A DNA stretch of 32,000 nt from Delftia acidovorans NBRC 14950 (GTDB lineage: Bacteria; Pseudomonadota; Gammaproteobacteria; Burkholderiales; Burkholderiaceae_C): the NCBI RefSeq assembly GCF_001598795.1, contig NZ_BCZP01000011.1:30001-62000 (forward strand). The letters are read 5' to 3'. The translations under genes and the position numbers were made by a program. The notes beneath the pieces are model-generated. The model did not search any database, had not been told where the DNA came from, and saw only the letters and a list, made by a program, of their open reading frames with translations. Positions 442 to 30,019 of this stretch are shown here, one piece after another (the first letter of the stretch is position 1; each line of letters starts with the position of its first letter).

Positions 442-470
442 ATCATTCGTGAAACACAGGTAACAGTCAA
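442..470 (-). promoter_or_regulatory. Putative sigma70 promoter for the DUF697 gene
   Basis: Minus strand reads TTGACT (470-465), a 17-nt spacer, then AATGAT (447-442). Position is about 120 nt upstream of the ATG at 319. Confidence 0.3.
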
Positions 471-542: not shown

Positions 543-2147
543 TCAGCCTTCGGCTTTTCCGTAGAGGCGCTCGGCCGGGATGCCCAGATCCTCGCAGGCG
601 GCCAGCAGGGAGCGCACGGAGCGCATGGCGGCCGACTCCGGGTCGAACTCGATGCTGGTGATAAACGACAGCCACGGCTCCAGCCCCAGTGCATAGACGA
701 AGACCTGCTCGCACTGCAGCATGCGCAGCAGGCCCATGGCGCGGCGGTAGTCCGAGCCGTCGAGCCGGCGCGACTGGTCGCGTGCGCGGTCCAGCGGTGT
801 CGGCAGCAGCGGACCGTACAGCCAGCTCAGGGGCGCGCCCTCGCACTCCATGCCGATGAACAGGGCCTGCAGCGAACCCACCACGGGGCGCAGGTGCTCG
901 TACAGGCGAGGCTCCAGATTGTTGGAGTCCGCCGCGAACAGCAGGCGGCTGCCGGCGGCATCCACCAGCCAGGCGGCCTTGGTGCGAATGTCCAGATCGG
1001 CATGCTCGCCCAGGAAAGGCAGGGCGGTGACCGTCAGGTCGCCCTCGCTGAAGACCTCCAGCGGGCCGATTTCCTGCACATCGGCAAAGCCCGCCGCCTG
1101 CAGTGCGAGCTTGAGCGAGGGGTCGGCAAGACTGCCTCCCCCGCCGGCTGGCACCAGAACCCGACCGATGCGCGAGCGCAGGGCCAGCAAGGTCTCCAGC
1201 TGCACATGGTCCTGGTGGTTGTGCGTCAGCGCCACGCAGTCGATGCGCTGCGGCAGGTCGGCCAGCGTGAAGCGCGGTGTCTGGCCCGCGCTGCCACCGG
1301 CAGGCACCAGGGGATCGATCAGCACGCTGCGCCCACCTGGCGTCTCGACCAGCACGCAGGCATGGCCGAAATACCGCCAGCGCGCGCTGCCCACCGGCGC
1401 CGTGTCCGCCAGGTCCCCACCGCGCCGGGCCGGTGGCGTGCCGGTCAGCAAAGCGTGGAAGCGGTCGGCCCGCGCGCCCTCCAGCCCGAGCGACTCGGCG
1501 ATGGCATCGAAGGGGCGCGGTGCGTGCCGCAGCGCTGCCAGCATGTCGTTGGCGGGGCTGGCATACGGAATCTGCAGGGCGACCGCCCCGTCACGTTCGA
1601 GCTGCGGCGTGCCCAGGGCAAAGGGCCGCACATCGCCGCCGCGCATCACCAGCGTGCTCTGAGCCGAGGTGTCATACAGCGGGCTGCGGTAGAGCAGCGC
1701 CTCGATCAGGCGCAGGTCCGGTGCGCCGGTCAGCGAGTACACGAGCTCCGCATAGCCGCGCACCGAATCGGGAAGGCGCGGATACAGCTGCGCCATCGAA
1801 TGCCCATCGGCCTGGGTCTTGAGCAACTCCCAGCACTGCCCCAGGTCGGCAGCAAACGACAACAGCCCGGCATGGCGCTGGCGCGTCTCGTCCAGCAGGG
1901 CCTGGATGTCCCCGCGGCGCTCGGCCGGCCAGTCCATGAAGGGGCCGCCGCGCATGGCGGCATTGGCCACGGCCTGGGCATGCAGCTCGGGCGCCTCCAG
2001 ATAGGACTCCATGATGCGCACGTAGCGGTTGGCCAGGTACAGGGCCGCCGTGGCGGGCGAAATCAGAAAGGACCAGGCATACCAGCCCGCGAACCGTGGC
2101 ACGGCCACCACGTCCTCGCGCAGATAAAGCGGTGTTGCGTCAGCCAT
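543..2147 (-). CDS. CmlA-like nonheme diiron beta-hydroxylase candidate (N-terminal domain plus MBL-fold domain; would be annotated MBL fold metallo-hydrolase)
   Basis: ORF track 543..2159. I prefer the ATG at 2147 (MADATPLYL...) because GAGGAG lies 5 nt upstream and ATGGCTGA overlaps the upstream TGA stop (2142-2140). HxHxDH motif THNHQDH is at 1206-1226. Length is about 534 aa, with an N-terminal domain of about 260 aa ahead of the MBL fold. It is the last gene of an NRPS operon, the context described for CmlA-family beta-hydroxylases acting on carrier-bound amino acids. Confidence 0.55.
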   Translation of the reverse strand: MADATPLYLREDVVAVPRFAGWYAWSFLISPATAALYLANRYVRIMESYLEAPELHAQAVANAAMRGGPFMDWPAERRGDIQALLDETRQRHAGLLSFAADLGQCWELLKTQADGHSMAQLYPRLPDSVRGYAELVYSLTGAPDLRLIEALLYRSPLYDTSAQSTLVMRGGDVRPFALGTPQLERDGAVALQIPYASPANDMLAALRHAPRPFDAIAESLGLEGARADRFHALLTGTPPARRGGDLADTAPVGSARWRYFGHACVLVETPGGRSVLIDPLVPAGGSAGQTPRFTLADLPQRIDCVALTHNHQDHVQLETLLALRSRIGRVLVPAGGGGSLADPSLKLALQAAGFADVQEIGPLEVFSEGDLTVTALPFLGEHADLDIRTKAAWLVDAAGSRLLFAADSNNLEPRLYEHLRPVVGSLQALFIGMECEGAPLSWLYGPLLPTPLDRARDQSRRLDGSDYRRAMGLLRMLQCEQVFVYALGLEPWLSFITSIEFDPESAAMRSVRSLLAACEDLGIPAERLYGKAEG

Positions 2148-5100
2148 GTGTCTCCTCAAGCCAATAGGTCAGCGGCCGGTCCTGGTCCAGCGTCTCCAGC
2201 AGGTGCGCCATGGACTCCAGCAGGGCGTCGGCCACGGCGGGAGCGACCTTGAGCGCGTCGTGCACCGCCAGCAGGCGAAAATCGTCGCCGGGCATGACTT
2301 CCAGGTTGAACGGGTGGTGCCAGGCGTCACGGATGTCCACATCGTGAAAAGCCAGGGCGGCGCTGTCGCTGCCCAACTCGCCCAGCGGGTAGTTCTGAAT
2401 GCGCAGCGCCGTGCCGAACAGGTCATCGGCAGCGGCCAGCCCGGCGGCCGATGCGATAGCCCGCGGCGCCAGCCAGGCATGACCAGACGCCTGCATGCGC
2501 CGGCGCTGCAACTGCTGGCAGGCGGCGGCAAAGCCCTGCGCCCGGTCGAGCCTCACGCGCAACGGCGGTGTGGCCAACATGGCGCCCACCATGGCCTCGG
2601 CACCCTCGAGTTCGGCGGGACGCAGGGCCGAGGTGACGCCAAAGGCCAGGTCGTCGCGCCCCATGTGCCGCGCCAGCACCAGCGCCCACGCCAGCAGGGC
2701 CACGCTGGGCACCGACAGGCGGTGGCGGCGGGCAAAGGCAGCCACGCTGGCGCCCGTCCCGGCTGCCAGCACCCGGTGCACCTGGCGGGAACGTCCGCTG
2801 GCCACGGCTGCCTCGGCAGCAGGCCAACGCGAGGGCGCCAGGCCCGCCAGTTCATTCTTCCAGAAGGCCTGCGCGCTGCCCGCATCCTGCGCATCCAGCC
2901 AGTCGAGGAAGCGCCGCACGTCGGGCGCTGGAGTGTCGGGCGCCGCCGCGCCGGGCAAGCGGCCCGCATAAACGGCCTGCACATCGGCCATCAAAATCGG
3001 CATCGACCAGCCATCGACCAGCAGGTGATGGTAGGTCCAGCAAAAGCGCCAGCCGCCGTCCGGCATGCGGGCGAGCGCAAAGCGCATCAGCGGGGCGCGG
3101 GCAAGATCGAAGCCGCGCGCCTGCTCGATCTCGCGCAGCGCATCGTATGCGACCTGTGCATCGGCGGGTGTCCAGGCAGACCAGTCCTCGGTGCGCCAGG
3201 GCGCGGCGGTGAGGCTGTCGTCCACATGCTGGCGCCCCGACCCGTCTGCTGCGTCCACAGAGAAACAGCCGCGCAGCGCCGCATGGCGAGCCACGGCGGC
3301 GTTCCAGGCAGCCATGAAAGCGGGCACGTCCAGCGTCGCAGGCAGGCTGGCCCCCAGTTGCACCACATAGGCGGACGATCCCGGGCAGGCCAGGGCGTGG
3401 GCCAGCATGGCGTCCTGCTGCGGCCCCAGGCCATGCGAGGGCAAGGCTGGCGCGCGCAAGGACGGGCTGGCCTGTGCGCCGCCTGCCTGTACAGAACCGG
3501 CTTGCCGCGCACTGGCCGCCGCGTGCACCAGCCAGGCCTGCATGTCGGCGGCCAGCGCCGCAATCCAGCCTTCCTCCAGGTCCCGGGGATCGTAGGTGAG
3601 ATCCAGCGCCAGCCGCCCGTCCGCCACCATGGCATTGACTTCCAGCGGGAAGGCACGCGGCGTGCTCGCCGCGAAGCCCGGGCCATCGCGCTCCGGCGCA
3701 GGGCGCAGGCCCTCGCCTTCGGGCCAGGCCGTATCCCATTGCCCCAGGTAGTTGAAGGCGATGCCGGGCGGGGCCTGCGCGGCCAGGGCCTGGCGCACGG
3801 CCGGCTCGGGCGAAAGCTGGCTGAGCACGCCGTAGCCGAAGCCGCGCCGCGGCATGGCGCGCAGAGCCTCACGCACGACCGCAAGAGCAGACAGCGCGGA
3901 CGGGCCCGCAGCGCCGTCCGCAGGCGGGGCATCGGGCAACGATCGAGGCAGGGGCAGTGCCAGGGGTGCCAGCGCCGTGAACCACCCCACGGTGGAGCCC
4001 ACCTCCAGGCCTTCAAGCACCACATCGCGGCCATGCGACTCCAGCGCCACACCGATGCAGCGGCCCTGGACGCGACCGGCCAGGGCCGAGGCCAGCGCCG
4101 CCAGCAGCAGCTCCTGCATGGAGGCGCCATGGACCCGTGGCGCCTCGCGCAGCAAGGCGCCAGTCTCGTCCACGGACAACTGCACGCCGAGGGTGACGGC
4201 TCCGCCCACCGTGGAGGCCGCCCCGGCGCCACGCGCCAGCGGCAGGCAGGCGTCGCCTGACTGGGCCAGCCAGTACGGCAGCTCGGCACGCGCCGACTGC
4301 GATGCGGCATGGCGCGACACGGCTGCCGCCCAATGGCTGAAGGACGCGCCAGGCGGCCTGGCAATGCGGCCAAGGCGGCAGGCCTCGGCCAGATCGTCCA
4401 GCAGCACGCGCCAGGACACGGCGTCGATGGCCAGGTGGTGCACGACCAGATGCAGGCGCGCCTGTGCCTGTGCATGAGTTGGCGCCTCCTCCTGGCCCGG
4501 GGGAAGGTACAGAGCCGCGTGCATCAGCGGGCCCGCCTGCAGGTCCAGCCGCTCCTGGTTGGCCACGGCGGCGGCCTGCAGCCGCTCGCGCCATGCGGCC
4601 GGCGTTTCGCCAGGCGGCGATGCCACCACCTGCAGCAGCGGGACCGCAGGCGGCACAAGGCCATCGGCCAGCGTCTGCACCCAGCCGCCGTCCTCGCGGC
4701 GATAGCGCAGGCGCAGCGCATCATGGCGCTGCAGCAGCAGCGCCAGCGCGGCCTGCAGCCGTTCGGGCGCGAGGTCGGCAGGCACGGTCAACAGAAAACT
4801 CTGGTTGTAGTGCTGGCGCTGCGGAGCGTCCAGCGCCAGGAACCAGCGCTGGATGGGCGTGAGCGGCACGCGGCCATCGCCTGCAACGTCCTCGGTGGCG
4901 CGGGGCTGCACCACCGGCCCTCCGTCCTGATCCAGCAGCGCCACGAGAGCAGCCACCGTCTGCGAGGCCGGGTCCATCAGCTGCGCCAGCGTGATGGCCA
5001 GCCCCTGCCGGTTGGCCCGCGCAACCACCTGGATGGCAAGAATGGAGTCCCCGCCCAGCTCGAAAAAGCTCTGGTGCGGCCCCACCTCGGCAACGCCCAG

Positions 5101-8100
5101 CACCTGGGACCAGACCGCCGCCAGCCGCGCGCAGGCGTCGCCTGCAGCGGCGTCGGCGGCAGGCGCTGGCGAAGACGGCCGCGCCGGCTGCGCCGCCAGT
5201 TGCCGGCCCAGTGCCTGGCGGTCGATCTTGCCGCTGTGGGTGAGCGGGAGCTGGTTCAGCTCCACGAAATAGGCGGGAACCATGTGCGCAGGCAGGCGGG
5301 CCGCCAGGTACGCGCGCAACGCCTCGGCGCCGACGGGGTTCGCGGCGCCCACGCAGGCCGTCAGCCGGTGGTCGGCCTCGCCGTGCGCAATGACCAGCAC
5401 CGCTGCGGCCTCCACGCCCGGGTGGGTGGCCAGCGCAGCCTCGATTTCGCCCAGCTCGATGCGCAGGCCGCGCAGCTTGATCTGGTGGTCGTTGCGGCCT
5501 GCAAAGTGCACGCGCCCATCGGCCAGGCGCCAGCCCCGGTCGCCCGTGCGGTACAGCCGCTCGCCGGGGTCGCCGAACGGATCCTGCACAAAGCTGGCCG
5601 CCGTCAGCCCGGGACGCCCCAGGTAGCCCCGCGCCAGCCCTGCACCGCCGATGTACAGCTCCCCCGGCGCCCCCGGGGGCAGCAGGCGCATGTCCTCGTC
5701 CAGCACATGCAGCTGCATGTTCGGCAGCGGCCGTCCAATGGGCAGCTGGTCGGCGCGTTGCACGCCCTCCTGCACGCTGACAGCCACCGAAGCCTCGGTC
5801 GGTCCATAGGCATTGAAAAAGCGCCGGCCCACCGACCACCGCAGCGCCAACTCCGGTGCACAGGCCTCGCCGGCCACCACCAGCAGGCGCAGCGCATCAA
5901 GCGAGGCCGCCTCCAGGGTGGAAAGCACCGTGGGCGGCAGTGTTGCGGCGGTGATGCCATGGCGCCGCACAAAGGCCTGCAGCTGTGGCCCGGCCCTTGC
6001 CATGTCCGGGGCAGGCACCAGCAGCGCCGCCCCATGGCGCCAGGCCATGGTCATCTCCCAGACGGAGGCGTCAAAGGACAGCGAGGCGAACTGCAGCACG
6101 CGATCGCTTCCATCCAGCGCGAACACGCGCTGCTGGGCATGGGCCAGGGCGCGCATGCCCGCCCGCGTATTGACCACGCCCTTGGGCGTGCCCGTGGAGC
6201 CGGACGTATAGATCACATAGGCCGAGGACGAGGCCTGCGGTTGGGCAAGCACAGTGGCCTCGGCAGCCTCGTCTGGCGACATGGTGCCGAATAACTGCTC
6301 CGGCGTGAGGCAGCGCAAACCCAGTTCCTCCGCCACGGGCAGCGCGGCATCGGCCAGCACCAGCACTGCGCCGCTGTCCTCCAGCATGAAGCGCTGGCGC
6401 TGCGCCGGCAGCGCAGGGTCGATGGGCACAAAGGCTGCGCCCGCGCGCAGGATTGCGGCAATTGCCGCCAGGCATACGGGAGAGCGGCCCAGGCACAGGG
6501 CCACACGGGTTTCTTGCCCTGCACCCAGGGCATACAGCGAGCAGGCCGCCTGGCTCGACAGCCTCGCCAGTTGCGCATAGTCCATGCGACCGTGCGGCCC
6601 TTCCAGGGCCGTGGCGCCGGGCGTGTGCTGCGCCCAGTGGTCGATCCAGTCCACCAGAAAGCGCTCGTCCATGGTCTCGGCAGGGCCGGTGCCGGCCTCC
6701 AGGGCATCGCGCGCCTGCTCGGGCGCGAGCTGCAGCAGCGAGCCCAGTGCCTGACCGGGCTGCGCCGCCATGGCGGCAAGCAGCGCATCGAGGTGCGACA
6801 GCAGGCGGCGCGCTGCCGCAGCCGGCACCTGCTCGCGGTCGCGGTGCAGTGCCAGGCGCCATCCATCCGTGCCTTGCATGCAGGCCAGGGTGAGCAGGAA
6901 GTTGGTGCGCTCATGGCTGGCGACTGCGGCCAGGCACAGACCACCGGCCTGCAGCGCATCGGGCGCAGGATAGTTCTGCACCAGAACCAGGGACTGGAAC
7001 AGATCGCAGCCTGGCTCCAGTTCCGAGGCCTGGCGGATTTCCGCCAGCGATGCGGCCGCATGCTGCTCGCGCTCCAGGTGGTCCCGCTGCAGCGCGGACA
7101 GCCACGAGAGCAGCGGCATGCCGGCAGCCACACGCACACGCGCCGGCACCGTGGCGATCAGCATGCCGACCATTTGCTCCACGTCAGCGATGTCGGGAGA
7201 GCGCCCCGACACGGTCACACCGAACACCAGGTCGCGGCTGCCGCTGTGGCACGACAGCAGCAGTGCCCAGGCGGCCTGCAGCACGATGCCGGGCGTGGCA
7301 CGCGCGGCGCGGGCCAGCGCGGCCAGGGCGCTGCTGGTGGCGGGCGGCAGCAGGCATTCGATCGGGTCCGGAGCCTCAGGCTCGACAGGCTCCCCGGCCT
7401 GGCGCAGAAAGGCCAGTGAGGTGGGCTCGTGCAGGCCCTGCAACGCCTGGCGCCAAAAGGCCTGGTCGGCCTGCACGTCGCGCCGCTGGTGCCAGCGCAC
7501 GCAGTCGGCGAAATCGGGCGCGCGCGGCAGCGCTGGCGTGCCATCGCCCAGGGCCTGGCCGTACAGGCGGAAGACCTCGTCCATCACCACAGAGACCGAC
7601 CACCCGTCCAGCAGCAGGTGGTGGGCGCTCCACAACAGCTCATGGCGGTCTTCTGCCGTGTGCAGCAGATGCAGGCGCATCAGGGGCGCGTGGCGCAGGT
7701 CGAAGCCCCGGGCCCGGTCCTGCGCCAGCAGTGCCGACAGGGCGGCATGCTGCGCGGCCGTATCCATGGTGCGCCAGTCGTCGTGCTGCCAGGGCAGCTC
7801 CACGTGGGCATGCACATGCTGCATGGCCTCGCCATCGTCCCAGTGGAAGCTGGTACGCAGCACGCCGTGGCGTGCCACCACAGCTTCCCAGGCACGGCGC
7901 AGCGCTGCCGGGTCCAGCGGACCCTGCAGGGTCAGTGTCAATTGATCGAAGTAGACCTGGTCATCGGGTGCACGCAGACTGTGGTAGAGCAGGCCGTGCT
8001 GCAGGGGCGTGAGCGCCAGCACGGCCACCGGAGCACGGCTGCGGGGAACGGCCTGCGGCACCTGCCCGGCCGGGGCAGCACATGCTCCACGGCCCTCACG

Positions 8101-11100
8101 CGCGGCGCTGGCGATCTCGGCCAGCACGGTCTTCACCTCATCCAGCCATTGGGCGATGCGCTCGCGGTTCGGCCCCCCTGCCGGAAAGCTCAGTTCCCCG
8201 CGCAGCCGGCCATTCCAGAGCCCCGCATTGAGCTCGATCACATGGCTGCGCGCCAGTCCGGGGGCCTGCGCAGGTCCCGCCGCCTCATCCACCGGAGCGA
8301 TGGTCTCGTCCCCGGCAGGGGCGCCGTCCATGCGGCCCAGGTAGTTCAGCAGCAGTTCCGGTTCAGGCAGCGCGGCCAGGCCGGCGCGCACGGCGCCGTC
8401 GGGCGAGCGGTAGCGCAGCAGCCCCAGCGCCAGTCCCTGCCATGCGGCGCCGCGCACCTGAGCGGCAACCTGCGCCACCACCGCCGCGGCATCGGCGGCG
8501 CCGTGAGCTGGCTCGATGCCCACGCGCTGCAGCGCCGTGAACCAACCGACGGTGCGAGACAGGTCCAGCTCCTCGAAGAGGTCGGCGCGTCCGTTGCGCT
8601 CCAGATCCAGCCGCCAGGGACCATCCACCCCCAGCCGCACGCCTGCCACAACCAGGGCGGCGAGCAAAGCCTCGTCCACGCGGGCGGCAAAGGCACGCGG
8701 CACCTCGTGGACCAGGGCCTGCGTCGTCTCCTCGTCCAGTTCGAAGGCCAGGGTCTGGGCCTGGCCCACGCAACCGGCTGGCGTCTGGGGAGGCAACACG
8801 GTCGCGCCCACCTGGCTGAACGCCTGTTGCAACGCCTGCGCCTGCGCAGCCGCCTCGGGCCCGGCGGCCAGCTCGCCCAACCGGTGCGACCAGCGCGCAT
8901 AGGAGCTGGTGGGCGCGGGCAGTCGCACGGGCTCGCCGCGCGACACTTGTGCGCAGGCCAGGGCCAGGTCTTCCAGCAGTACCGACCAGGAATAGGCATC
9001 CACCGCCAGGTGGTGAATGGCCAGCATCAGCCGGCCCGTGCCGGGCAGCAGCACGCCACGCACCATGCGGCCGGACGCCGGGTCCATGGCGCGCTGGGCC
9101 GCGGCAAAGGCTTCGGCCTGGCGCTGCTGTGCCTCTGCCGGTGCAAGGCCCTCCAGGCAGACCACGTCCAGCACAGGCCCGGGCGCCATGGGGGCAATAT
9201 CCAGCACGCCTTGTGCGTCCACCCGCAGGCGCAGCATCTCGTGGCATGCCACCACGCCCGCGAGCGCCCGCTCCAGCGCTTCGGCCGGCAACTGCGGGGG
9301 CACGCGCAGCACGGCCGCCTGGTTGTAGTGAGCGGCCCCTGCCCCTGCATGCTCCAGGAACCAGGCCTGGATGGGGGTCGGTGACAACGGTGCCCCGGCC
9401 TCCGCCACCGGTACCGTCGGCGCGGCCCGCGACCGCAGGGCGATCTCCCCGGCCAGGGCACGCACGGTCTGGGTGCGGAAGATGTCGCGCACCACCAGGT
9501 CCAGGCCCTGGCGGCGCGCACGCGAGACGATCTGCAGGCAGCGGATGGAGTCCACACCCAAGTCGAAGACGTTGTCGGTGACGCCCACCTGCGCAAGGTT
9601 CATCACCTCGGCAAAGAGCCTGGCCAGGGTGGCTTCCAGCGGGCTGCAAGGCTGGGCCGTGCCGTCCGCCACAGGCAGCTGCGGCGGCGACTGGAGGGCC
9701 AGCCCCGCCAGCGCGCGCCGGTCGATCTTGCCCGATGCCGTATGGGGCAGGCTCTCCAGCACGCGGCACACGGCAGGCACCATGTAGGGCGCAAGCCGCT
9801 CGGACAGCCAGCTGCGCAGCGCCGCCGCATCGGCCTGTCCCGCAACCACCGCGAGCAACACCGGCTGGCCTGCGCCATCGTGCGCCAGCACCACGGCAGC
9901 CTCGCGCACGCAGGGATGGGCCATGAGGGCGGCCTCCACTTCGGCGGGCTCGATGCGAAATCCCCGGATCTTCACCTGCGCATCGCGCCGGCCCAGGAAC
10001 TCCAGCGCACCGTCGGCACGCCGCCTCGCCAGGTCGCCGCTCCAATAGGCGCGCGCCCCGCCCAGTGCGGCGCAGGCGCGAAAAGCGGCCTGTGTGGCCT
10101 CGTCCTGTTGCAGATACCCCTGCGCCACACCACCGCCGCCGATGACGATTTCGCCGATGGCCCCGGCAGGCAAGGCCTGCCCGGCGCTGTCCACCACGGC
10201 CAGTTGCACGCCCTGCAGCGCATGGCCCAGAGGCAGGATCTCGGCCGCCAGAGGCAGCACGTCGTGCGCGGGGTCGAAGAACGCGGCCGAAATGGTGGCC
10301 TCCGTCGGGCCATAGCCGCTGAGCAGGGCCACAGGATGGCGGCACAGCGCCTGCCACTGGCGCAAGCTGCGCACGAAAACGCGGTCGCTGCCCGTGACCA
10401 CCAACCGCAGGGCGGGCGGAACAGCCGTGCCCGATGCATGCAGCATGCCCACCCACTCGTGCCAGAACGCGGACGGCAGATTGAGCACGGTCAGCCGCGC
10501 GCCTGCCACCTGGGCCTGGAAAGCCTCCAGGCTGTCAAGACTGTTCTGTGCCCGCAGCACCACGCAGGCACCGGAGGCCAGCGTGGGGAAGATCTCCTCG
10601 GCAGCCACATCGAAATCGGGTGCCGCGAACTGCAGCACGCGATCGGTCTCGCACAGGCCGAACTCACGCGCCACCGCCGCCGCATGGTGGGCCAGGTTGG
10701 CATGGCTCACGACCACGCCCTTCGGGGCGCCGGTCGATCCCGAGGTGAAGCAGACATAGGCCCGTTGCGCGGGGTCTGCGAGCCAGGGCTGCTGCGCGGC
10801 GCTGCCGGCAGGCTCTGCCACCAGGTCCGGCGCCAGGTCCGGCGCTACCAGCACCGTATGCGAAGGCCACTGCTCCGCCGCAGACGCGGTAATGACCAGG
10901 CGCACGCCGGCCGCCTCCATCATGGTCGCGCGCTGTGCCAGCGGCCTCGCCAGGCTGAGTACGGCATAGGCACAACCACAGCGCCAGGCCGCCAGCATGG
11001 CCACCGGCAAAGCCAGGCAGTTGCCCAGGCCCAGGCCGATCAGGTCGCCGGGCCTGGCACCCGCGCCGCGCAGTCGCCCGGCCAGTGCGTCGGCCTGGCA

Positions 11101-12770
11101 CACAAGCTCGCGCAGCGAAAGTGCCGCGCCATCCGCCTGCACGGCCATGCGCTGCGGCCAGCGATCGGCAGCGCGGGCTATCAGCGCGGGGACGGATGCC
11201 GGCGCAGCGCCCTCGGGCATGGCTGGTGCGGGAGCCACGGCGCAGGCCTGCGGGGCCAGCGCCAGCCGGGACAGTGCAAGGCCGCACGCCCACTGCCCCG
11301 CCACATGCGCAAACTGCGCGCACAGCGCAGCCACGGTGGCCGGGTCGAACAGGTCGGCGTCGTACTCCATGTCGCAGGCGAAGGCTTCGCCGTCCAGACG
11401 CGCCGACAGGTTCAGGTCCAGCTCTGGCGCCGCCGCTGGCACGGGCAGCGGCCGCACGGCCAGCCCCTGCATCGCCAGCACGGCTGCACCAGCGGTCTGC
11501 TGCACGAACATGGTCTGGAACAGGGGCGCACGGTTGAGCGCCCGCTCGGGCCGCACGGCCTGCACGATGCGCTCGAACGGCAGGTCCTGGTGCTCGAATG
11601 CCTGCAGGCAGGTGCGGCGAACGCGCTGCAGCAGCTCGGCAGGTTGGGGGTCGTCGCGCAGGTCGATGCGCAGCGGCAGGGTGTCGATGAAGAAACCGAC
11701 CAGTCCCTGCGTCTGCGGCGTGTCCCGGTGGGCCACCGGGCAGCCGATGACGACCTCGTCCTGGCCGGTCCAGCGCCCCAGCACGGCGGCATAGGCGGCC
11801 AACAGCGCCATGAAGGGCGTGACGCCTGCGCGTGCTGACGCCTCCTGCAGCGCCTGGGTGCCCTCCGGCGAGATGCGAAAGTGATGGTGGGCGCCACTGG
11901 CGCCGCGCTCTGCGGGCCGGGGCCTGTCCAGCGGCATCGCCAGCTGGGTGGGTGCGCCCTGCAGTTGCGACTGCCAGAAGGCCAGTTGCGGCGCCAGCCG
12001 CGCCTCATCCAGCGTGGCGCGCTGCCAGGCCGAGTAGTCTGGGTAGCGCAGGGGCAGCGGTTGCAGCGGCGACGGCAGGCCCTGGCAGGCCGCGTCATAC
12101 AGCTGGCCGAGTTCGGCCAGCAGCAGCCCCATGGACCAGAAATCCCCGGCAATGTGGTGCAGCGACAGGGCCAGCACGTGGCGCTGCGGCTCCAGTGCAA
12201 ACAGGCGCAGCCGCAAGGGGGGCGCCTGCGTCAGATCGAAGGGCTGGCGCGCCTGCTGCGCCATCAGGTCGGCCAGGCCCTGGGGTGAGGCATCGTCCAC
12301 GGACTCTGGCTGAAGGCGCACGGCCGTGGCAGCGCCGATGCGCAGCACCGGCTCGGCGGCCTCGTCCACGATGACGCTGCGCAGCAGCTCGTGGCGCTCC
12401 ACCAGCACCGTCAGCGCCTGCTGCAGGGCCTCAAGGTCCAAAGGGCCTTCGAGCTCGAAACAGGCGGCCATGATGAAGGCGCTGCCACCGCCCTCCAGCC
12501 GGTCCAGGAACCAGAGCCGGCGCTGGTTGAAGGACAGCGGCACGCGGTCGGGATCCACCTCTGCAGCAGCTCCTGCGGCCACTGGCGCGGGCCCGCTGCG
12601 TGACAGCAGGGCCAGCAGCTGCGGCTTGAGAGCGCGCAGCTCATCGCGCATCTGCCCGCCAATGGCACCTGCCGGGCCGCGCACTTTCAGATCGCCGCCC
12701 TCGACTTGCACGGTCACGCCCAGCTGCGCCAGGCGGGCCAGCAGATCGCTTGCCCTGTCGCTCGCACTCT

Positions 12771-12774
<4 letters not shown>
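2140..12774 (-). CDS. Non-ribosomal peptide synthetase, two modules: TubC-like docking domain-C-A-T-E-C-A-T-E-C (terminal condensation domain, no TE)
   Basis: ORF track 2140..12813. The preferred start is ATG 12774 (MKSASD...), which forms an ATGA overlap with the upstream stop and has GGAGGA 11 nt upstream. Motifs read from sequence, in order: HHIAGD 12142-12159; TSGSTG 10729-10746; carrier Ser (DLGVDS) 9547-9549. E domain 1: PIQAWF, HHLAVD 8998-9015. C domain: HHLLLD 7606-7623. A domain 2: TSGSTG 6190-6207, FDASVWE 6055-6075; carrier Ser (GGDS) 5044-5046. E domain 2: PIQRWF, HHLAID 4423-4440, FNYLGQ. Terminal C: HHLLVDGWS 3013-3030. Confidence 0.95.
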
Positions 12775-23830
<11,056 letters not shown>

Positions 23831-23834
<4 letters not shown>

Positions 23835-26800
23835 GGCAGCGCCTTGGTTGCTGCAGCGCCGTGGGCGGCCGCCTTTTGATCAGGGGTCATGCTTTCGATC
23901 TCGAACAGCCGGCCCGCAATGGCCAGCGTGATTCCCGGGCGGGATTCCAGCGCAATCACGCGCTGGCAAAAATCTGCCATGCAGGGGTGGCGCAACAGCT
24001 CGGCCATCGATATATCGACGCGAAACAGCTCCCGCGTGCGCGCCGCGATCTGCGCCGCCCCCAGCGAATTGCCGCCCAGCGAGAAGAAGTCGTCGTCCAC
24101 ACCACAGTCGGCCAGGCCCAGCGCCTTGCACCACAGGCGCACCATGTAGCGCTCGAACGCATTGCGTGGCGCTGCGCTGGATGCCATGCCCGCAGCCAGG
24201 CGCAAAAGGGCCGCGCGGTCCAGCTCCCCCCGGGCATCGGTGGGCAGGGATGCGACGTTCAGCACCGGCACGCTCACCGGCCGTCCACAGGCATCGTGCA
24301 GCCACCGATGCGGTGCGGACGGGTCACCGCTGCCGGCCACTTCATTCACTTGCTCCACTTGATCCACTTGATCCTCTTCGCCGGCACGGCGCGCGTCGAC
24401 TGCGGCGCCTTCACGCACCCAGACCAGCTCATCGGCACCGTAGATGGCGCCCTCGCGCACCGCGGCGTGACGGGGATGGCCGAGGTCCAGGCCCACGGTC
24501 ATGACAGGCTGCTCGCCGCGCACCGCCAATTCGAAGGCCTGCAGGCCCTGCGCCTCATCGATCGACAGATAGCCCGAGGCAGCGAACAGCGCCGGGTTCG
24601 ACACCTGGCGGCTCAGGCCGATGTCCCGCCACGCCGAAAAACCGAGGTAGCGGCAGCGGGCGCCACCGGCGCTGTGCGCCTGTCGCTCCACAAAGGCCAT
24701 CTGCCAGGCATCTCCCGCCGCATAGGCCGCCACGCGGCGCCCCCCCAGCAGGCCCATGACCGAGCCGGCCACCAGGAACAGGGCCCGGGGATCGTGGGCG
24801 ATCAGGGCGTGCAAATGGCGCGTTCCCTCGACCTTGGCGCGCTGCGCCCGGGCAAAGCATTGCTCTTCTTCCTCCGCACACAGGGCCAGGCGCGACTCGG
24901 CTGCCAGTTGCACCACGCCGGCCAGCGGCTGTCCGAAGTGCTGCTGCGCCTGGGCCACCGCGGCCTGCAGGGCGGCGGGGTCGGTGACATCGGCCTGCAC
25001 GTACAGGAGCGTCCCGCTGCGCGAAAGCAGTTCCAGTGGCTGCCGGCGCTCCACAGCAGGGGCACGGCCGACGATGAGCAGCCGGGCGCGGTACCGGCCG
25101 AGCAGGTGCCGGGCCAGCAAAAAGCCCACGCCCCCCAGCCCACCGGCCAGCAGGTACAGCCCCTGCTCCTGGAATCCCTGATGCCCTGCAGCATCGGGAA
25201 CCAGGGGCACCAGGGGCACCAGGGGCACCAGGCGCCGCACCCGCCGCACGCCGGCATGCCACAGCACCTCGGGCTCGCGCTGGCTGCAGCCCAGTTCCGC
25301 GCACAGCCCGGCGGCATCAAGAACGGCGGCATCGGCAGCGACACTGGCGTCGGCATCGGCAGCGACACCGGCGTCGCCCCAGGCGACATGGCGGCAGCGC
25401 AAGGCAGGCATTTCAGCCTCCAGACTGCGCAGTACCGCGCGCGCCATTGCCCGCTGGCCCTCGTCCTGAGCCGTACCTGCGCAGACCAGCAACCGGCCTG
25501 GCACATGCCCGCCGGGGGCGGCCAGCCAGCGGGCTGCCTGCAGCAGGCCAGGGGCCAGCGCCTGTTCACCGGCCAGCACCAGCACATCAGGCGCCCACTC
25601 GCGCAACGCGGCCACGGCGTCGGCCGGTGAGCCGGTATCGTCCAGCGCCATCCAGCGGTGACGGGGCTGCAGGGCCTGCAATTGCGCCAGCGCCTGGGCG
25701 CCGGCACCACACAGCGCCACAGTCAACGCATGCGCCTGCGCAGGCGCCATGGCCGGCAACGCATCGTGCTGGCGCGGGCGCCATACGGGCCGGGCAAACC
25801 AGGCAGGTATGGTGCCTGCACCGCCGATCAGGCAGGCGGCATCCTTGATTTCGCGATCAAAGGCCCCTGTCTCCACCAGGCGGCGCAGCTCCACGCGCTG
25901 CACCTTGCCGGCACCCGTGCGCGGCAGGCGCTCGGGCGGCACGGCAATGAAATGGTCCACGGCCAATCCCAGGTCCTGGCCCAGGCGCATGCGCAAGGCG
26001 CGCATGAGCGAACGGCGCAGTTGCGGCTCGCCAGCGCCCGGCGCGTGAAAGAACAGCACCAGTTGGTCGGTGGCCGCGCCGGCCGGGCGCACGCCGATGG
26101 CAGCCAGCCCCTGGCGGTCCAGGCCGGGCACGCGCGCAGCGGCCTCCTCGATCTCGGCGCTGTAGAAATTGGCACCGTTGACGATGATCATTTCCTTGAC
26201 GCGGCCCACGATGTGCAGCTCGCCCGAACGCAGGAACCCCATGTCGCCGGTCTGGAACCAACCGTTGCGCAGCGCCTCGGCCGTGAGGTCGGGCCGGCCG
26301 TGATAGCCCGAGAACACCGAGGGCCCGCTGAGTTCGACCCGCCCGATCTCACCCTCCATCAGGGTGCGGCCTGCATCGTCCACGATGCGCTGTGCACCGC
26401 CTGCGATCGGGTGGCCCAGGCTGGTCACCGCCTCGCCGGACGCTGTCCAGCAACGCAGCGAGAACGCAGAGACCGTCTCGGTCATGCCAAAGGACATCCA
26501 GACGGCGCCCTGCCTGAGCCCGTCCTGCGCAAAGCGGCGCTCGAAATCCACGAGGACCGGCTCCGATACCGGCTCCCCGGCGTTGATGAGCATGCGCAAA
26601 CAGGACAGGTCCCAATGGCCGGGGGCCTGGCCGCGGGCTGCACGCAGCAGCAGGTCGAATGCAAAGTTGGGCGCCCACACCGCTGCGACCCGGTGCTCGG
26701 CCACGAGGTCCAGCCAGCGCGCGGGAGCCTCGAGGATGGTGGCCGTATCCACCTGGACCTGGTCCAGGCCCAGCACCGTAGGCATCACGCACAGGAACAC

Positions 26801-27913
26801 CACGCCGCCCACATGGTCCAGCGGCATCCAGTTCAGCGCGGTCTCGCCGGGCGCGAAGCGCAGTTGCTGCTGCACGCCGCTGATCATGGCGGCCAGATTG
26901 CCGCGGCTCAGTACCACGCCCTTGGGCGTTCCGGTGCTGCCCGAAGTCAGCAGCATCAGTGCGGGCTGCCCCGGCCCGGCGCTGGCCGAGGGCTGCGCGG
27001 GCGCACCCGCCTGCAGTGCCTGGGCATCGAGCAGCTGCATGCCCTGCAGCGCTGCGGCATGGGGCCGCAAGCCGGCCAGGGCTGCCGCAGAGCCGACCAC
27101 GGGCGCCCTGCCCGCCACCTCCCAGCAGTTGAGCAACCGCTCCAGGCCGGCCCCCCCGGCCGCCGCCGGTCCCAGTGCCAGAGGCGCCGGCACCAGGCCG
27201 CCGAGCACACAGCCCCAGAACACGGGCAGCAGGTGACGACTGTCCCCGGCGTCCACGATGACGGTGTCACCCGCCTTCAGCCCCAGGGCCAGCAGCCCGC
27301 CCAGGGTGCGGCAGGCCTCGTCGAGCAGTTGCGCATAGCTGGTGCGGGACTGGGAAAGATCGGCAGCCACATGGACGATGCCCGCTCCGGGACGCGCAGC
27401 CGCGCGCACCAGCGCCTGCTCCAGCGCATATCCGACACCCGCGTCCGGCAGCGCAGGTGAATGGTGGACGGCAGGAATGCGCTCGTGCAAAGGCACCGCG
27501 CCGCGCCGCGCCGCAGGTGCGGGCGCCGGATCGCCCAGCAAGGGCCGGCCGGGCAGCAGATCGCACAGGTGCAGGTGGGAAGCCGGCTGCACGGCAGGCC
27601 GGGTGACCAGCGCGCTGCCCCATTGCTGCTGCGCGGCGTCGACCGCGCCCGGTGACCAGACTGGCAGTGCGGCCAGGGCGGCCTCGTCGATGGCGCCCAT
27701 GTCATCGAGCGGCAAGGCGCTGACCCGCACCACCGCATCGCCTGCGCCAGCCAGGGCAGCCTGCAGGGTATCGCGCTCTCCGCCCACCACGTAGGCGACC
27801 AGACCGTCGAACCCCGCAGCATTGCGCCGTGAAAGATGCACATCGGCGGCTCCCACCGCCATCAGGCGGGCTTTCAGACCGCCCGCTTCCGCCCCGCTGT
27901 CCGTACCCGCCAT
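23831..27913 (-). CDS. Loading subunit: adenylate-forming (FAAL/A-domain-like, ANL superfamily) domain - PKS-type ketoreductase (with structural subdomain) - peptidyl/acyl carrier protein
   Basis: ORF track 23831..27967 begins at a TTG. I prefer ATG 27913 (MAGTDSG...), which has GAAGGG about 9 nt upstream and sits downstream of the predicted promoter/TSS. Motifs: LTSGSTGTPKG 26930-26947; NWMPLDHVGG; IVNGANFYSAEIE; A10-like GAGKVQR with Lys codon 25904-25906; KR Rossmann AGGLGGVG 25124-25147 with K/S/Y candidates; carrier FFSLGGNS with Ser codon 24065-24067. Confidence 0.9.
24337..24381. repeat. Imperfect in-frame 9-bp tandem repeat (about 5 copies, CCACTTGAT-like) encoding EEDQVDQVEQVNEV between the KR and carrier region of the loading subunit
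   Basis: Plus strand reads ccacttcat tcacttgct ccacttgat ccacttgat cctcttcgc. Confidence 0.75.
25200..25235. repeat. In-frame 9-bp tandem repeat (ACCAGGGGC x3 plus one variant) encoding LVPLVPLVPLVP just upstream of the KR Rossmann fold
   Basis: Plus strand reads accaggggc accaggggc accaggggc accaggcgc. Confidence 0.85.
25327..25374. repeat. 24-bp tandem duplication (2 copies, one mismatch) encoding DAGVAADA/DASVAADA in the KR structural subdomain region
   Basis: cggcatcggcagcgacactggcgt (25327-25350) is followed directly by cggcatcggcagcgacaccggcgt (25351-25374). Confidence 0.85.
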
Positions 27914-27978
27914 CGATCCGATCCCTTCAAAGCTGTGGCTCCGACGCCGATTCACTGCCCTGCCCAAAGACCGGCCGG

Positions 27979-28007
27979 ATAGTTACAAACATTTTCTTTA
28001 ATGTCAA
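27979..28007 (-). promoter_or_regulatory. Putative sigma70 promoter of the NRPS-PKS operon (TTGACA-17 nt-AACTAT with extended -10 TGn)
   Basis: Minus strand reads TTGACA (28007-28002), the 17-nt spacer TTAAAGAAAATGTTTGT, then AACTAT (27984-27979). The TG of an extended -10 lies within the spacer end (tgT-AACTAT). The predicted TSS near 27972 leaves a leader of about 59 nt before ATG 27913. Confidence 0.5.
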
Positions 28008-28102
28008 TGCAGCCATTCTCATTAAGAGAAGGTTCAATGGAAACATTGGCATGCCAACGCAAGAGAAACGCCGACAGCAAAGCCTGGCAAATTCAATTGA
28101 TT

Positions 28103-28122
28103 ATTGAAAATGGATTTTCAAT
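28103..28122. promoter_or_regulatory. Perfect inverted repeat ATTGAAAAT-GG-ATTTTCAAT (candidate regulator binding site upstream of the operon promoter)
   Basis: Read directly: attgaaaatggattttcaat, with 9-nt arms and a 2-nt spacer. It lies in the AT-rich block about 100 nt upstream of the -35. The adjacent TCAATTGA palindrome is at 28093-28100. Confidence 0.35.
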
Positions 28123-28139
28123 ATATTTTCACCGCATGT

Positions 28140-28161
28140 ATATCACTGAAATCAGTGATAT
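28140..28161. promoter_or_regulatory. Perfect inverted repeat ATATCACTGA-AA-TCAGTGATAT (candidate operator/activator site)
   Basis: Read directly: atatcactgaaatcagtgatat, with 10-nt arms and a 2-nt spacer, about 135-155 nt upstream of the -35. Confidence 0.35.
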
Positions 28162-28534
28162 CGACATCGTGGCGTCAAAGAGCGGCGCCAGGAAGAGCGG
28201 GCGGCAAGATCACGGCGAAAGCCATGCAGGCCCGGGAACTGAAGGGTGACTGCAAGAGAGCTGCTGACCTTGAACGGGCAGGATATGGGCAGGGCATAGG
28301 CAGGCGGCCAATGCACCATGGCTGTGCATGAAAACGGTCATCAGTGGCAGCCCTGCCATGAATAAGCATGCCACCCATAAATCAGTGCTGCCAGGATCTT
28401 TTTTTTGACGCAAGCGCTTATTGAAGCAATTGCGCCACAGTCACGGAAACAGCACGGAAAGCCATCGAAACAAAACAATGCAAATTCCGAGCTGGGCAGG
28501 GGCCAGGATTTGCACGAGGAAGATCGTCCAGACG

Positions 28535-28570
28535 AAAAAAAGCCCCTCGGATTTTATCCGAGAGGCTTTT
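28535..28570 (-). terminator. Rho-independent terminator downstream of tRNA-Val
   Basis: Minus strand reads AAAAGCCTCTCGGAT-AAA-ATCCGAGGGGC followed by TTTTTTT. The stem is 28542-28566, with an A-run at 28535-28541 and a T-run at 28567-28570 on the plus strand. It starts about 13 nt after the tRNA 3' end. Confidence 0.7.
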
Positions 28571-28582
28571 CACCAATATATT

Positions 28583-28659
28583 TGGTAGGCGCGATTGGAC
28601 TCGAACCAACGACCCCCACCATGTCAAGGTGGTGCTCTAACCAGCTGAGCTACGCGCCT
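28583..28659 (-). tRNA. tRNA-Val (anticodon GAC), CCA encoded
   Basis: The reverse complement is AGGCGCGTAGCTCAGCTGGTTAGAGCACCACCTTGACATGGTGGGGGTCGTTGGTTCGAGTCCAATCGCGCCTACCA, 77 nt. It folds as a cloverleaf: 7-bp acceptor stem; D arm GCTC/GAGC; anticodon stem CCACC/GGTGG with loop TTGACAT; T arm GTTGG-TTCGAGT-CCAAT. It closely resembles the E. coli tRNA-Val(GAC) I recall. An extended -10-like TGCTATACT lies upstream at about 28679-28687. Confidence 0.95.
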
Positions 28660-28729
28660 GTCGTTTGTTGAAGCCGCAAGTATAGCAGTGCAAAACAGGG
28701 CTTCCGGGCAAGTTGCGCAGTTTTTCCGA

Positions 28730-29995
28730 TCACAGCACCCTGGCGCGTTCCAGCATGGCGTGCATCAGCACATTGCAGCCTGCGGTGATGTCGGCCGGCG
28801 TGGCGTCCTCGATCTCGTTGTGGCTGATGCCGTCCTTGCAGGGAATGAATACCATGCCGGCCGGTGCCAGCCGCGCCATGTAGACCGCGTCATGCCCGGC
28901 GCCCGAGACGACGGGCATGTGCGAGTAGCCCAGGGCCTTGGCGGCGCGCGCCACCGCATCCACGCAGTCGGCATGGAAGGGTTGGGCGGGGTAGCTGGAC
29001 ACCAAGTTGATCGCTATGGGCAGGCCCGTTTCCCGGCTGATGCGGTCGGCCACGGCGCGGATGTCAGCGTCCATGGCTTCGCAGTCGGCATCGGTGGCGT
29101 TGCGCAGGTCGATGCTGAATTTGACCTGCCCCGGGATCACGTTGCGGCTGTTGGGATGGACCTGCACCATGCCCACCGTGCCGCGCCCGTGGGGCGGATG
29201 GCGGTGGGCGCAGGCCACCACTTCCTGCATGAGCTGCGCGGCCGCCTGCAGCGCGTCCTTGCGCAGGGCCATGGGCGTGGGGCCGGCATGGGCCTCCATG
29301 CCCGTGACCACGCAGTCATACCAGCGGATGCCCAGCACGCCGGTGACCACGCCAATGGTCCTGGCGTTGTCCTCCAGCACCGGGCCCTGTTCGATGTGGG
29401 ACTCGAAGTAGGCGCCGATCGGGTGGTCGCCCGGTTCCTGGCTGCCCACATAGCCGATGCGCTCGAGCTCGCCCTTGACGGTCTTGCCTTCGGAGTCGGT
29501 GGCCGCATAGGCATGCTCCAGCGTGAAGGCCTTGGCGAACACACCCGAGCCCATCATCACCGGCACGAAGCGCGAGCCTTCCTCGTTCGTCCAGAAGGCC
29601 ACCTCGATGGGCGCTTCGGTCTCGATGCCGTGGTCGTTGAGCGTGCGCACCACCTCCAGCCCCGCCAGCACGCCGTAGTTGCCGTCGAACTTGCCGCCCG
29701 TGGGCTGGGTGTCGATGTGGCTGCCCGTCATGATGGGTGGCAGGCTGTTGTCGCGCCCGGGCCGGCGCATGAAGCCGTTGCCGATCTTGTCGATGGTCAC
29801 CGTCATGCCCGCCTCGCGCGCCCAGCGGGTCACCAGATCACGGCCCTGGCGGTCCAGGTCGGTCAGCGTCAGGCGGCAGACGCCGCCCTTGGGCGTGGCG
29901 CCGATCCGGGCCAGCTCCATGAGTGAATCCCACAGCCGGCTTCCGTTGACGCGCAGCTGCGCGATGTCCTGCTTCACTTGGGTATCTGTATCCAT
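28730..29995 (-). CDS. M20-family Zn-dependent amidohydrolase (N-carbamoyl-amino-acid amidohydrolase / beta-ureidopropionase / allantoate amidohydrolase family)
   Basis: 421-aa ORF. ATG 29995 has AAGGAG 6 nt upstream. The sequence shows family hallmarks (GSHIDTQPTGGKFDG, EEGSRF, GAGHDA) and lies 24 nt downstream of the dihydropyrimidinase gene. Confidence 0.85.
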   Translation of the reverse strand: MDTDTQVKQDIAQLRVNGSRLWDSLMELARIGATPKGGVCRLTLTDLDRQGRDLVTRWAREAGMTVTIDKIGNGFMRRPGRDNSLPPIMTGSHIDTQPTGGKFDGNYGVLAGLEVVRTLNDHGIETEAPIEVAFWTNEEGSRFVPVMMGSGVFAKAFTLEHAYAATDSEGKTVKGELERIGYVGSQEPGDHPIGAYFESHIEQGPVLEDNARTIGVVTGVLGIRWYDCVVTGMEAHAGPTPMALRKDALQAAAQLMQEVVACAHRHPPHGRGTVGMVQVHPNSRNVIPGQVKFSIDLRNATDADCEAMDADIRAVADRISRETGLPIAINLVSSYPAQPFHADCVDAVARAAKALGYSHMPVVSGAGHDAVYMARLAPAGMVFIPCKDGISHNEIEDATPADITAGCNVLMHAMLERARVL

Positions 29996-30019
29996 TGCGG
30001 TCTCCTTGTCATGCGGGCT

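Follow-up and report, generated by a model that had tools for sequence, protein, structure and literature searches.

A CmlA-type diiron hydroxylase gene at the end of a kasumigamide-type assembly line in Delftia acidovorans

We analysed a stretch of 32,000 nucleotides (nt) of Delftia acidovorans NBRC 14950 (contig NZ_BCZP01000011.1, called contig 11 here), referred to as the window, which starts at base 30001 of the contig. Near its left end, the last gene of a series of minus-strand non-ribosomal peptide synthetase (NRPS) and polyketide synthase (PKS) genes is predicted to encode a diiron hydroxylase of the CmlA family. An earlier interpretation made from the letters of the DNA (the sequence-only reading) had put forward such an enzyme, paired with a Phe-like final adenylation domain, and had kept a thioesterase of the metallo-beta-lactamase (MBL) type as an alternative. 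The features of this gene are the following, motifs being placed by alignment with CmlA:

543..2147, minus strand: dakasD-type gene for a predicted 534-amino-acid (aa) CmlA-family non-heme diiron beta-hydroxylase, stop codon at 543-545
2152-2157, minus strand: GAGGAG Shine-Dalgarno sequence, 4 nt 5' of the hydroxylase ATG
2140..2147, minus strand: 8-nt overlap ATGGCTGA of the hydroxylase start and the NRPS stop, from sequence reading
1434..2126, minus strand: CmlA_N domain, residues 8-238 (Pfam PF18456, E 1.4e-71, profile positions 1-232 of 232)
546..1382, minus strand: MBL-fold catalytic domain, residues ~256-534 (Pfam Lactamase_B_2, Lactamase_B_3 and Lactamase_B; model)
1206..1226, minus strand: THNHQDH motif, residues 308-314 (H309, H311, D313 and H314 correspond to CmlA H305, H307, D309 and H310)
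1002..1016, minus strand: FLGEH motif, E381 corresponding to CmlA E377 (the residue altered in PDB 5kil, E377D mutant)
924..935, minus strand: AADS motif, D407 corresponding to CmlA D403
837..854, minus strand: GMECEG motif, E434 corresponding to CmlA E430

The open reading frame covers 543..2159 on the minus strand, and its in-frame ATG at 2145-2147 gives 534 aa, in agreement with the size proposed earlier. The upstream NRPS frame closes with CAT GGC TGA, the TGA being located at 2140-2142; the two genes thus share 8 nt, an overlap also pointed out by the sequence-only reading. Translation of the hydroxylase gene is coupled to that of the last NRPS gene. A search for terminator-like sites on the minus strand found none. 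A GC-rich hairpin 3' of this stop was considered as a terminator and rejected, its stability being not above that of shuffled controls (z -0.69). A promoter-like TTGACT-17-AATGAT is present at 442-470 (minus strand), in the interval from the hydroxylase stop to the DUF697 gene, with a GC-rich hairpin just upstream.

The protein displays the size and layout claimed for it, namely a full CmlA_N domain followed by an MBL fold. The MBL-fold Pfam families begin at residue 258, and the interdomain linker (residues 243-245) has low model confidence in AlphaFold. In a phmmer search against PDB sequences, residues 8-529 matched CmlA (4jo0/5kik) with E 2.8e-114 and 39% identity, so that chance likeness is no concern. 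An end-to-end match was obtained with FrsH (8a90, E 1.9e-106), the remaining matches being marginal. CmlA homology of the N-terminal domain is therefore borne out by Pfam, and that of the protein by its whole-length match. The THNHQDH motif was found exactly where it had been placed. Beyond HxHxDH, the three carboxylates E381, D407 and E434 are present as well, and all seven diiron ligand positions were invariant among 40 homologues sharing 48-70% identity with the hydroxylase. PDB entries 5kik and 5kil show a single difference, at the Glu of FLGEH (E377D mutant), and because they differ exactly there this Glu is a functionally studied ligand position. In CmlA, E377, D403 and E430 reportedly complete a 3-His/4-carboxylate diiron site, as Makris and colleagues are said to have described in 2013.

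An AlphaFold2 model of the hydroxylase was built on the alignment of the 40 homologues, with a mean predicted local distance difference test (pLDDT) of 89.5 and a predicted template modelling score (pTM) of 0.92. Comparison with known structures by Foldseek gave full-length matches with template modelling (TM) scores of 0.90-0.95. FrsH (8a90) came first (TM 0.95, root mean square deviation (rmsd) 1.7 A, 36% identity) and CmlA next (TM 0.90, 39% identity), the rmsd to these two structures being 1.7-2.3 A over ~530 columns. Other MBL proteins reached TM scores of 0.39 at most and covered the C-terminal half of the hydroxylase alone. In the 6.63-Mb genome, CmlA_N matched this hydroxylase only. 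As judged by domains, ligands and modelled fold, the gene is a genuine CmlA-type diiron hydroxylase gene, whose product is predicted to bind two irons and to have O2-dependent beta-hydroxylating activity.

CmlA, from the chloramphenicol pathway of Streptomyces venezuelae (PDB 4jo0, 5kik, 5kil), shares with the Delftia protein the CmlA_N and MBL layout and the seven ligand positions. It also uses an aromatic L-amino acid, as predicted for the Delftia enzyme. However, CmlA acts on L-p-aminophenylalanine bound to the CmlP carrier protein, whereas the Delftia enzyme is predicted to act on Phe at the last of the six modules of a hybrid line, with subsequent epimerisation. FrsH (FR900359 pathway, PDB 8a90) and HynC (hypeptin) belong to the same family, FrsH being the best structural match. 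Their substrates, Leu for FrsH and Tyr and Leu for HynC, differ from the Phe predicted in Delftia. In the FR900359 pathway, FrsA requires the MbtH-like partner FrsB.

The substrate assignment depends on the assembly line upstream of the hydroxylase gene. In the domain orders given below, A stands for adenylation, T for thiolation (carrier), C for condensation, E for epimerisation, KS for ketosynthase, AT for acyltransferase, KR for ketoreductase and ACP for acyl carrier protein:

2140..12813, minus strand: dakasC-type NRPS, 3557 aa, TubC_N docking domain then C-A-T-E-C-A-T-E-C (Pfam and motifs; order as in published KasC)
12771..23834, minus strand: dakasB-type NRPS-PKS, 3687 aa, C-A(VDWVTSLADK, beta-Ala type)-T-C-A(DVSQVGAVTK)-T-KS-AT-KR-ACP
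23831..27967, minus strand: dakasA-type loading protein, 1378 aa, A (Val for Asp at 235)-KR-T
5224..6642, minus strand: last A domain, residues ~2058-2530, code DAWTVAAVAK (Phe/phenylserine type)
4933..5127, minus strand: last T domain, residues 2563-2627, GGDS at 2587-2590 (Pfam PP-binding and motif); presumed site of Phe hydroxylation
3514..4866, minus strand: E domain of the last module, HHLAIDAVSW at residue 2792 (order as published)
2143..3513, minus strand: terminal C domain, intact HHLLVDGWS motif (residue 3262)

The 10-residue A-domain codes were read from an alignment of the window's five A domains together with motif anchors. The loading A domain is without Asp235, and the four others read VDWVTSLADK, DVSQVGAVTK, DVENVGGISK and DAWTVAAVAK. 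VDWVTSLADK is recognisable as a beta-Ala type and DAWTVAAVAK as a Phe type. In the last A domain, FDASVWE (NRPS residues 2247-2253) is indeed located at 6055-6075, and the code previously read by eye, D-A-W-T-V-A-A-V-A-K, was identical to our independent extraction. A literature search for the exact 10-residue codes returned nothing. The Trp and Arg A-domain assignments come from assays of Microcystis enzymes (PMC5061366).

In the loading protein, Val in place of Asp235 is consistent with an alpha-keto acid substrate of the A domain. A fatty acyl-AMP ligase, considered from the motifs, was dropped, since the published phenylpyruvate assignment agrees better with the A-KR-T layout, the missing Asp235 and the MakasA-A1 assay in vitro. 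About 190 residues precede the AMP-binding match of this protein, and ~380 residues separating the A match from the KR match have no Pfam assignment. Upstream of it, the intergenic region 5' of the first assembly-line gene (window 28001-29000) has a GC content of 55%, against 70-74% within the cluster, and is probably the promoter or regulatory region of the cluster.

This organisation corresponds to that of the kasumigamide cluster. Nakashima et al. (2016, PLoS One 11:e0164468; PMC5061366) described kasA-D of Entotheonella, encoding proteins of 1381, 3694, 3560 and 529 aa. The Delftia proteins of 1378, 3687, 3557 and 534 aa show the same domain order, A-KR-T / C-A-T-C-A-T-KS-AT-KR-ACP / C-A-T-E-C-A-T-E-C plus a CmlA-like hydroxylase. 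The same paper reported homologous clusters in Delftia acidovorans CCUG 274B (WP_016445283-295, dakasA-J, 70.6% GC) and Herbaspirillum sp. CF444, the hydroxylases of the family being named KasD, MakasD, DakasD and HkasD, and A-domain binding sites that are 77-100% identical among these clusters. KasD was annotated as CmlA-like and is 39% identical to CmlA, as is the Delftia protein. A difference concerns gene order: kasD is placed before kasA in the Entotheonella table, while the Delftia gene follows the kasC-type gene with its short overlap. The phosphopantetheinyl transferase (PPTase) of the operon falls in a 90% identity cluster which includes WP_016445294.1 of CCUG 274B. The sequence cluster of the exporter encoded in the same region consists of Delftia proteins throughout, and the loading protein has its closest named relatives in Burkholderia sp. 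SRS-46 and several Herbaspirillum species. The present genome may be that of a Delftia strain or species other than CCUG 274B. Based on the matching domain order and sizes and on the PPTase clustering with WP_016445294.1, the gene is, at the level of sequence, DakasD itself or an orthologue from a closely related Delftia strain, within a kasumigamide-type NRPS-PKS line. In 2016, KasD was called a beta-hydroxylase on the grounds that it is 39% identical to CmlA and conserves the metal site, by sequence comparison only (PMC5061366). The Delftia cluster and the role of the gene were thus already published on such a comparison: the reading is correct but not new, and gene, family and predicted role carry little weight as a discovery.

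To examine the pairing of hydroxylase and substrate, we surveyed 80 loci encoding hydroxylase relatives (numbered with the prefix L), extracted all A-domain codes from their flanks, and placed the hydroxylases in a quick IQ-TREE tree. Among the nearest relatives with a Phe-type A domain (DAWT[VAF]AAV[CA]K), this domain lies upstream on the same strand in 10 of 11 and downstream in the other (L060). The window's hydroxylase groups with those of Oxalobacteraceae bacterium GrIS 1.11 and Burkholderia sp. SRS-46 (SH-aLRT 100). In this clade, the adjoining upstream code is DAWTVAAVCK or DAWTVAAVAK, and a DVENVGGI[ST]K domain comes before it, as in Delftia. The last A domain reads DAWTVAAVCK in most relatives and DAWTVAAVAK in Delftia. 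In the next proteobacterial branches (Tateyamaria, Oceanibaculum, Rhodospirillaceae, Polaromonas), DAWT[VAF]AAVCK is again found upstream, whereas the large acidobacterial/verrucomicrobial clade adjoins Val-type codes, such as DALWLGGTFK. Since Phe-type and Val-type codes sort by clade, the hydroxylase lineage tracks the specificity of the neighbouring A domain, and that of the window pairs with Phe.

Several groups of this survey show arrangements of their own. In an alphaproteobacterial sister group, the hydroxylase start overlaps the end of a KS-AT-KR-ACP module. In the Oceanibaculum pacificum locus (L004, 1-11572), and probably also in L007, L014, L018, L045 and L056, a Phe-type A-T followed by KS-AT-KR-ACP occupies one open reading frame. 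This organisation predicts a hydroxylated, statine-like 4-amino-3-hydroxy-5-phenylpentanoate unit, hence a putative product family other than kasumigamide. A clade of freshwater Burkholderiales with small genomes encodes a CmlA-type hydroxylase of ~50% identity, and within 10 kb of it no complete A-domain code could be read. It comprises L016 (4000-18000; Burkholderiaceae bacterium GE-14, 1.35-Mb chromosome), L010-L015, L019-L025, L029, L031, L034, L038 and L040. In L016, the genes flanking that of the hydroxylase encode a response regulator, dioxygenases of the Cupin_8/JmjC-like and PhyH types, a DUF697 protein and an ATP-binding cassette (ABC) exporter of the cyclic-peptide type. The acidobacterial/verrucomicrobial homologues (L026, L030, L035-L037, L046, L048, L050, L065, L067, L079, L080) lie within 1-2 kb of Val-type A domains (DALWLGGTFK, DAFWLGGTFK, DA[LW]WLGGVFK), which suggests a subfamily that may form beta-hydroxy-Val.

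Taken together, sequence and analogy with characterised relatives indicate that DakasD is probably a CmlA-family diiron monooxygenase which hydroxylates carrier-bound Phe in the kasumigamide-type line. The last A domain (DAWTVAAVAK) would load L-Phe onto the final T domain, and the reduced diiron centre would activate O2 and hydroxylate the C-beta of Phe-S-T. With the syn (2S,3R) course usual in the family, L-threo-phenylserine would result. After condensation with the chain ending in D-Arg, the downstream E domain would invert C-alpha to give the (2R,3R) residue. In this nomenclature, (2S,3R)-phenylserine is the L-threo isomer and (2R,3R)-phenylserine is D-erythro or anti. Release would be ensured by the terminal C domain and/or a stand-alone thioesterase encoded two genes downstream, and not by the hydroxylase.

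Published data on the product and on the family provide points of comparison. Kasumigamide contains D-Arg followed by a C-terminal D-erythro (anti) 3-phenylserine, its single beta-hydroxy amino acid (PMC5061366), and this configuration was reported both originally and after the total synthesis and revision of kasumigamide in 2020. The sequence-only reading had suggested a beta-hydroxy-Phe, subsequently epimerised, as the final residue. This corresponds to kasumigamide's C-terminal residue, and the cluster architecture matches the published kas clusters. FrsH (with Leu) and HynC (with Tyr and Leu) were shown by direct assay to act on aminoacyl-S-T, and the FrsH/HynC papers report that CmlA likewise acts on a carrier-bound substrate and that the characterised non-heme diiron monooxygenases all hydroxylate syn, (2S,3R). 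Syn hydroxylation followed by C-alpha inversion would be consistent with the kasumigamide configuration. The 2016 proposal was that KasD turns L-Phe into L-threo-3-phenylserine and that the E domain of module 6 converts it into D-erythro-3-phenylserine (PMC5061366).

Several points weigh against the carrier-bound scheme or the assignment behind it. The CmlA ligand list, E377, D403 and E430 included, is taken here from established knowledge, together with the PDB alignment and the E377D entry. In the searchable literature, neither experiments on the Delftia enzyme or any other KasD orthologue nor reports of kasumigamide production by Delftia were found. Moreover, in a malachite-green assay in vitro, MakasC-A2 of Microcystis preferred DL-threo-phenylserine over L-Phe, and because of this preference the authors proposed hydroxylation of free Phe prior to loading (PMC5061366). 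This preference is the sole biochemical datum on the hydroxylation step, and it points the opposite way on timing.

In that 2016 scheme, enzyme and product are the same, but free L-Phe is hydroxylated and the last A domain activates L-threo-phenylserine. The higher adenylation activity of MakasC-A2 with DL-threo-phenylserine than with L-Phe speaks in its favour (PMC5061366). However, an A domain that tolerates a beta-hydroxylated analogue says nothing on the order of events, and the characterised members of the family use T-bound substrates, FrsH and HynC by assay and CmlA as reported. The code of the last A domain is in addition the canonical Phe code, and the hydroxylase gene is translationally coupled to the NRPS. 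On family precedent, code and coupling, we consider hydroxylation of free Phe unlikely and that of carrier-bound Phe the more likely order. Should free Phe nevertheless be the substrate, the CmlA family would gain its first off-line member.

The hydroxylase could also serve another module, for example that of Trp or Arg, or the Delftia product could be something other than kasumigamide. HynC does serve two different modules, and the Delftia product was never isolated. Nevertheless, the hydroxylase phylogeny follows the Phe-type A domain in the nearest relatives, phenylserine is the one beta-hydroxy amino acid of kasumigamide, and the A-domain binding sites of the kas-family clusters share 77-100% identity (PMC5061366). 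We regard both variants as very unlikely, and retain hydroxylation of Phe on the last module.

Chain release was considered together with the flank beyond the window. Downstream of the hydroxylase gene come genes for a DUF697 protein and a stand-alone thioesterase, then for an ABC exporter of the cyclic-peptide type, an SPFH protein and an Sfp-type PPTase. The thioesterase concerned is:

L001 16938-17720, equal to contig 11 28938-29720, minus strand: stand-alone thioesterase (PF00975, E 1.2e-34), second gene downstream of that for the hydroxylase and just outside the window at its left edge

The absence of a thioesterase, advanced by the sequence-only reading, thus holds inside the window and fails at the level of the cluster. 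This protein is relevant to release or editing in an assembly line that terminates in a C domain.

In another scheme, the beta-hydroxyl of the last residue would act as the nucleophile for the terminal C domain, and a labile beta-lactone peptide would form and then hydrolyse to linear kasumigamide. The intact motif of the terminal C domain, the lack of a thioesterase domain in cis and the C-terminal position of the hydroxylated residue are compatible with such a release, in which the beta-hydroxyl would be more than a decoration. The Microcystis cluster, however, yields the same linear acid without a terminal C domain (PMC5061366), and we find this scheme highly doubtful.

That the hydroxylase protein is itself an MBL-fold thioesterase or release enzyme replacing the missing domain deserves almost no credence: its MBL fold and the NRPS without a cis thioesterase would allow it, but the complete CmlA_N domain together with the carboxylate-rich diiron ligands (E381, D407, E434) invariant across the family, the full-length structural matches to CmlA and FrsH only, with hydrolytic MBL proteins covering the C-terminal half, and the other release candidates (the terminal C domain with its intact HHxxxDG and the stand-alone thioesterase) all stand against it. 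The protein also differs from hydrolytic MBL proteins in that it is not a single MBL domain without CmlA_N. The product family moreover requires a Phe beta-hydroxylase, and this is the sole CmlA_N protein of the genome; no second hydroxylase was seen among the genes scanned. The thioesterase alternative of the sequence-only reading was therefore abandoned in favour of the hydroxylase.

The distribution of the hydroxylase is patchy. A search with the hydroxylase gave no homologue in 39 other species of its GTDB genus and only two distant ones (41-45% identity) in 200 genera of the family, while the exact sequence is present on many Delftia contigs. The NRPS region of the window has a GC content of 70-74% compared with 66.7% for the genome. 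This patchy distribution and raised GC content fit horizontal transfer, which has been proposed for the cluster (PMC5061366).

The relation between hydroxylase clade and neighbouring A-domain code (Phe or Val type) provides a practical predictor for genome mining. Unlike Entotheonella, Delftia is culturable and genetically tractable, which makes it a convenient host for questions of hydroxylation timing and of production.

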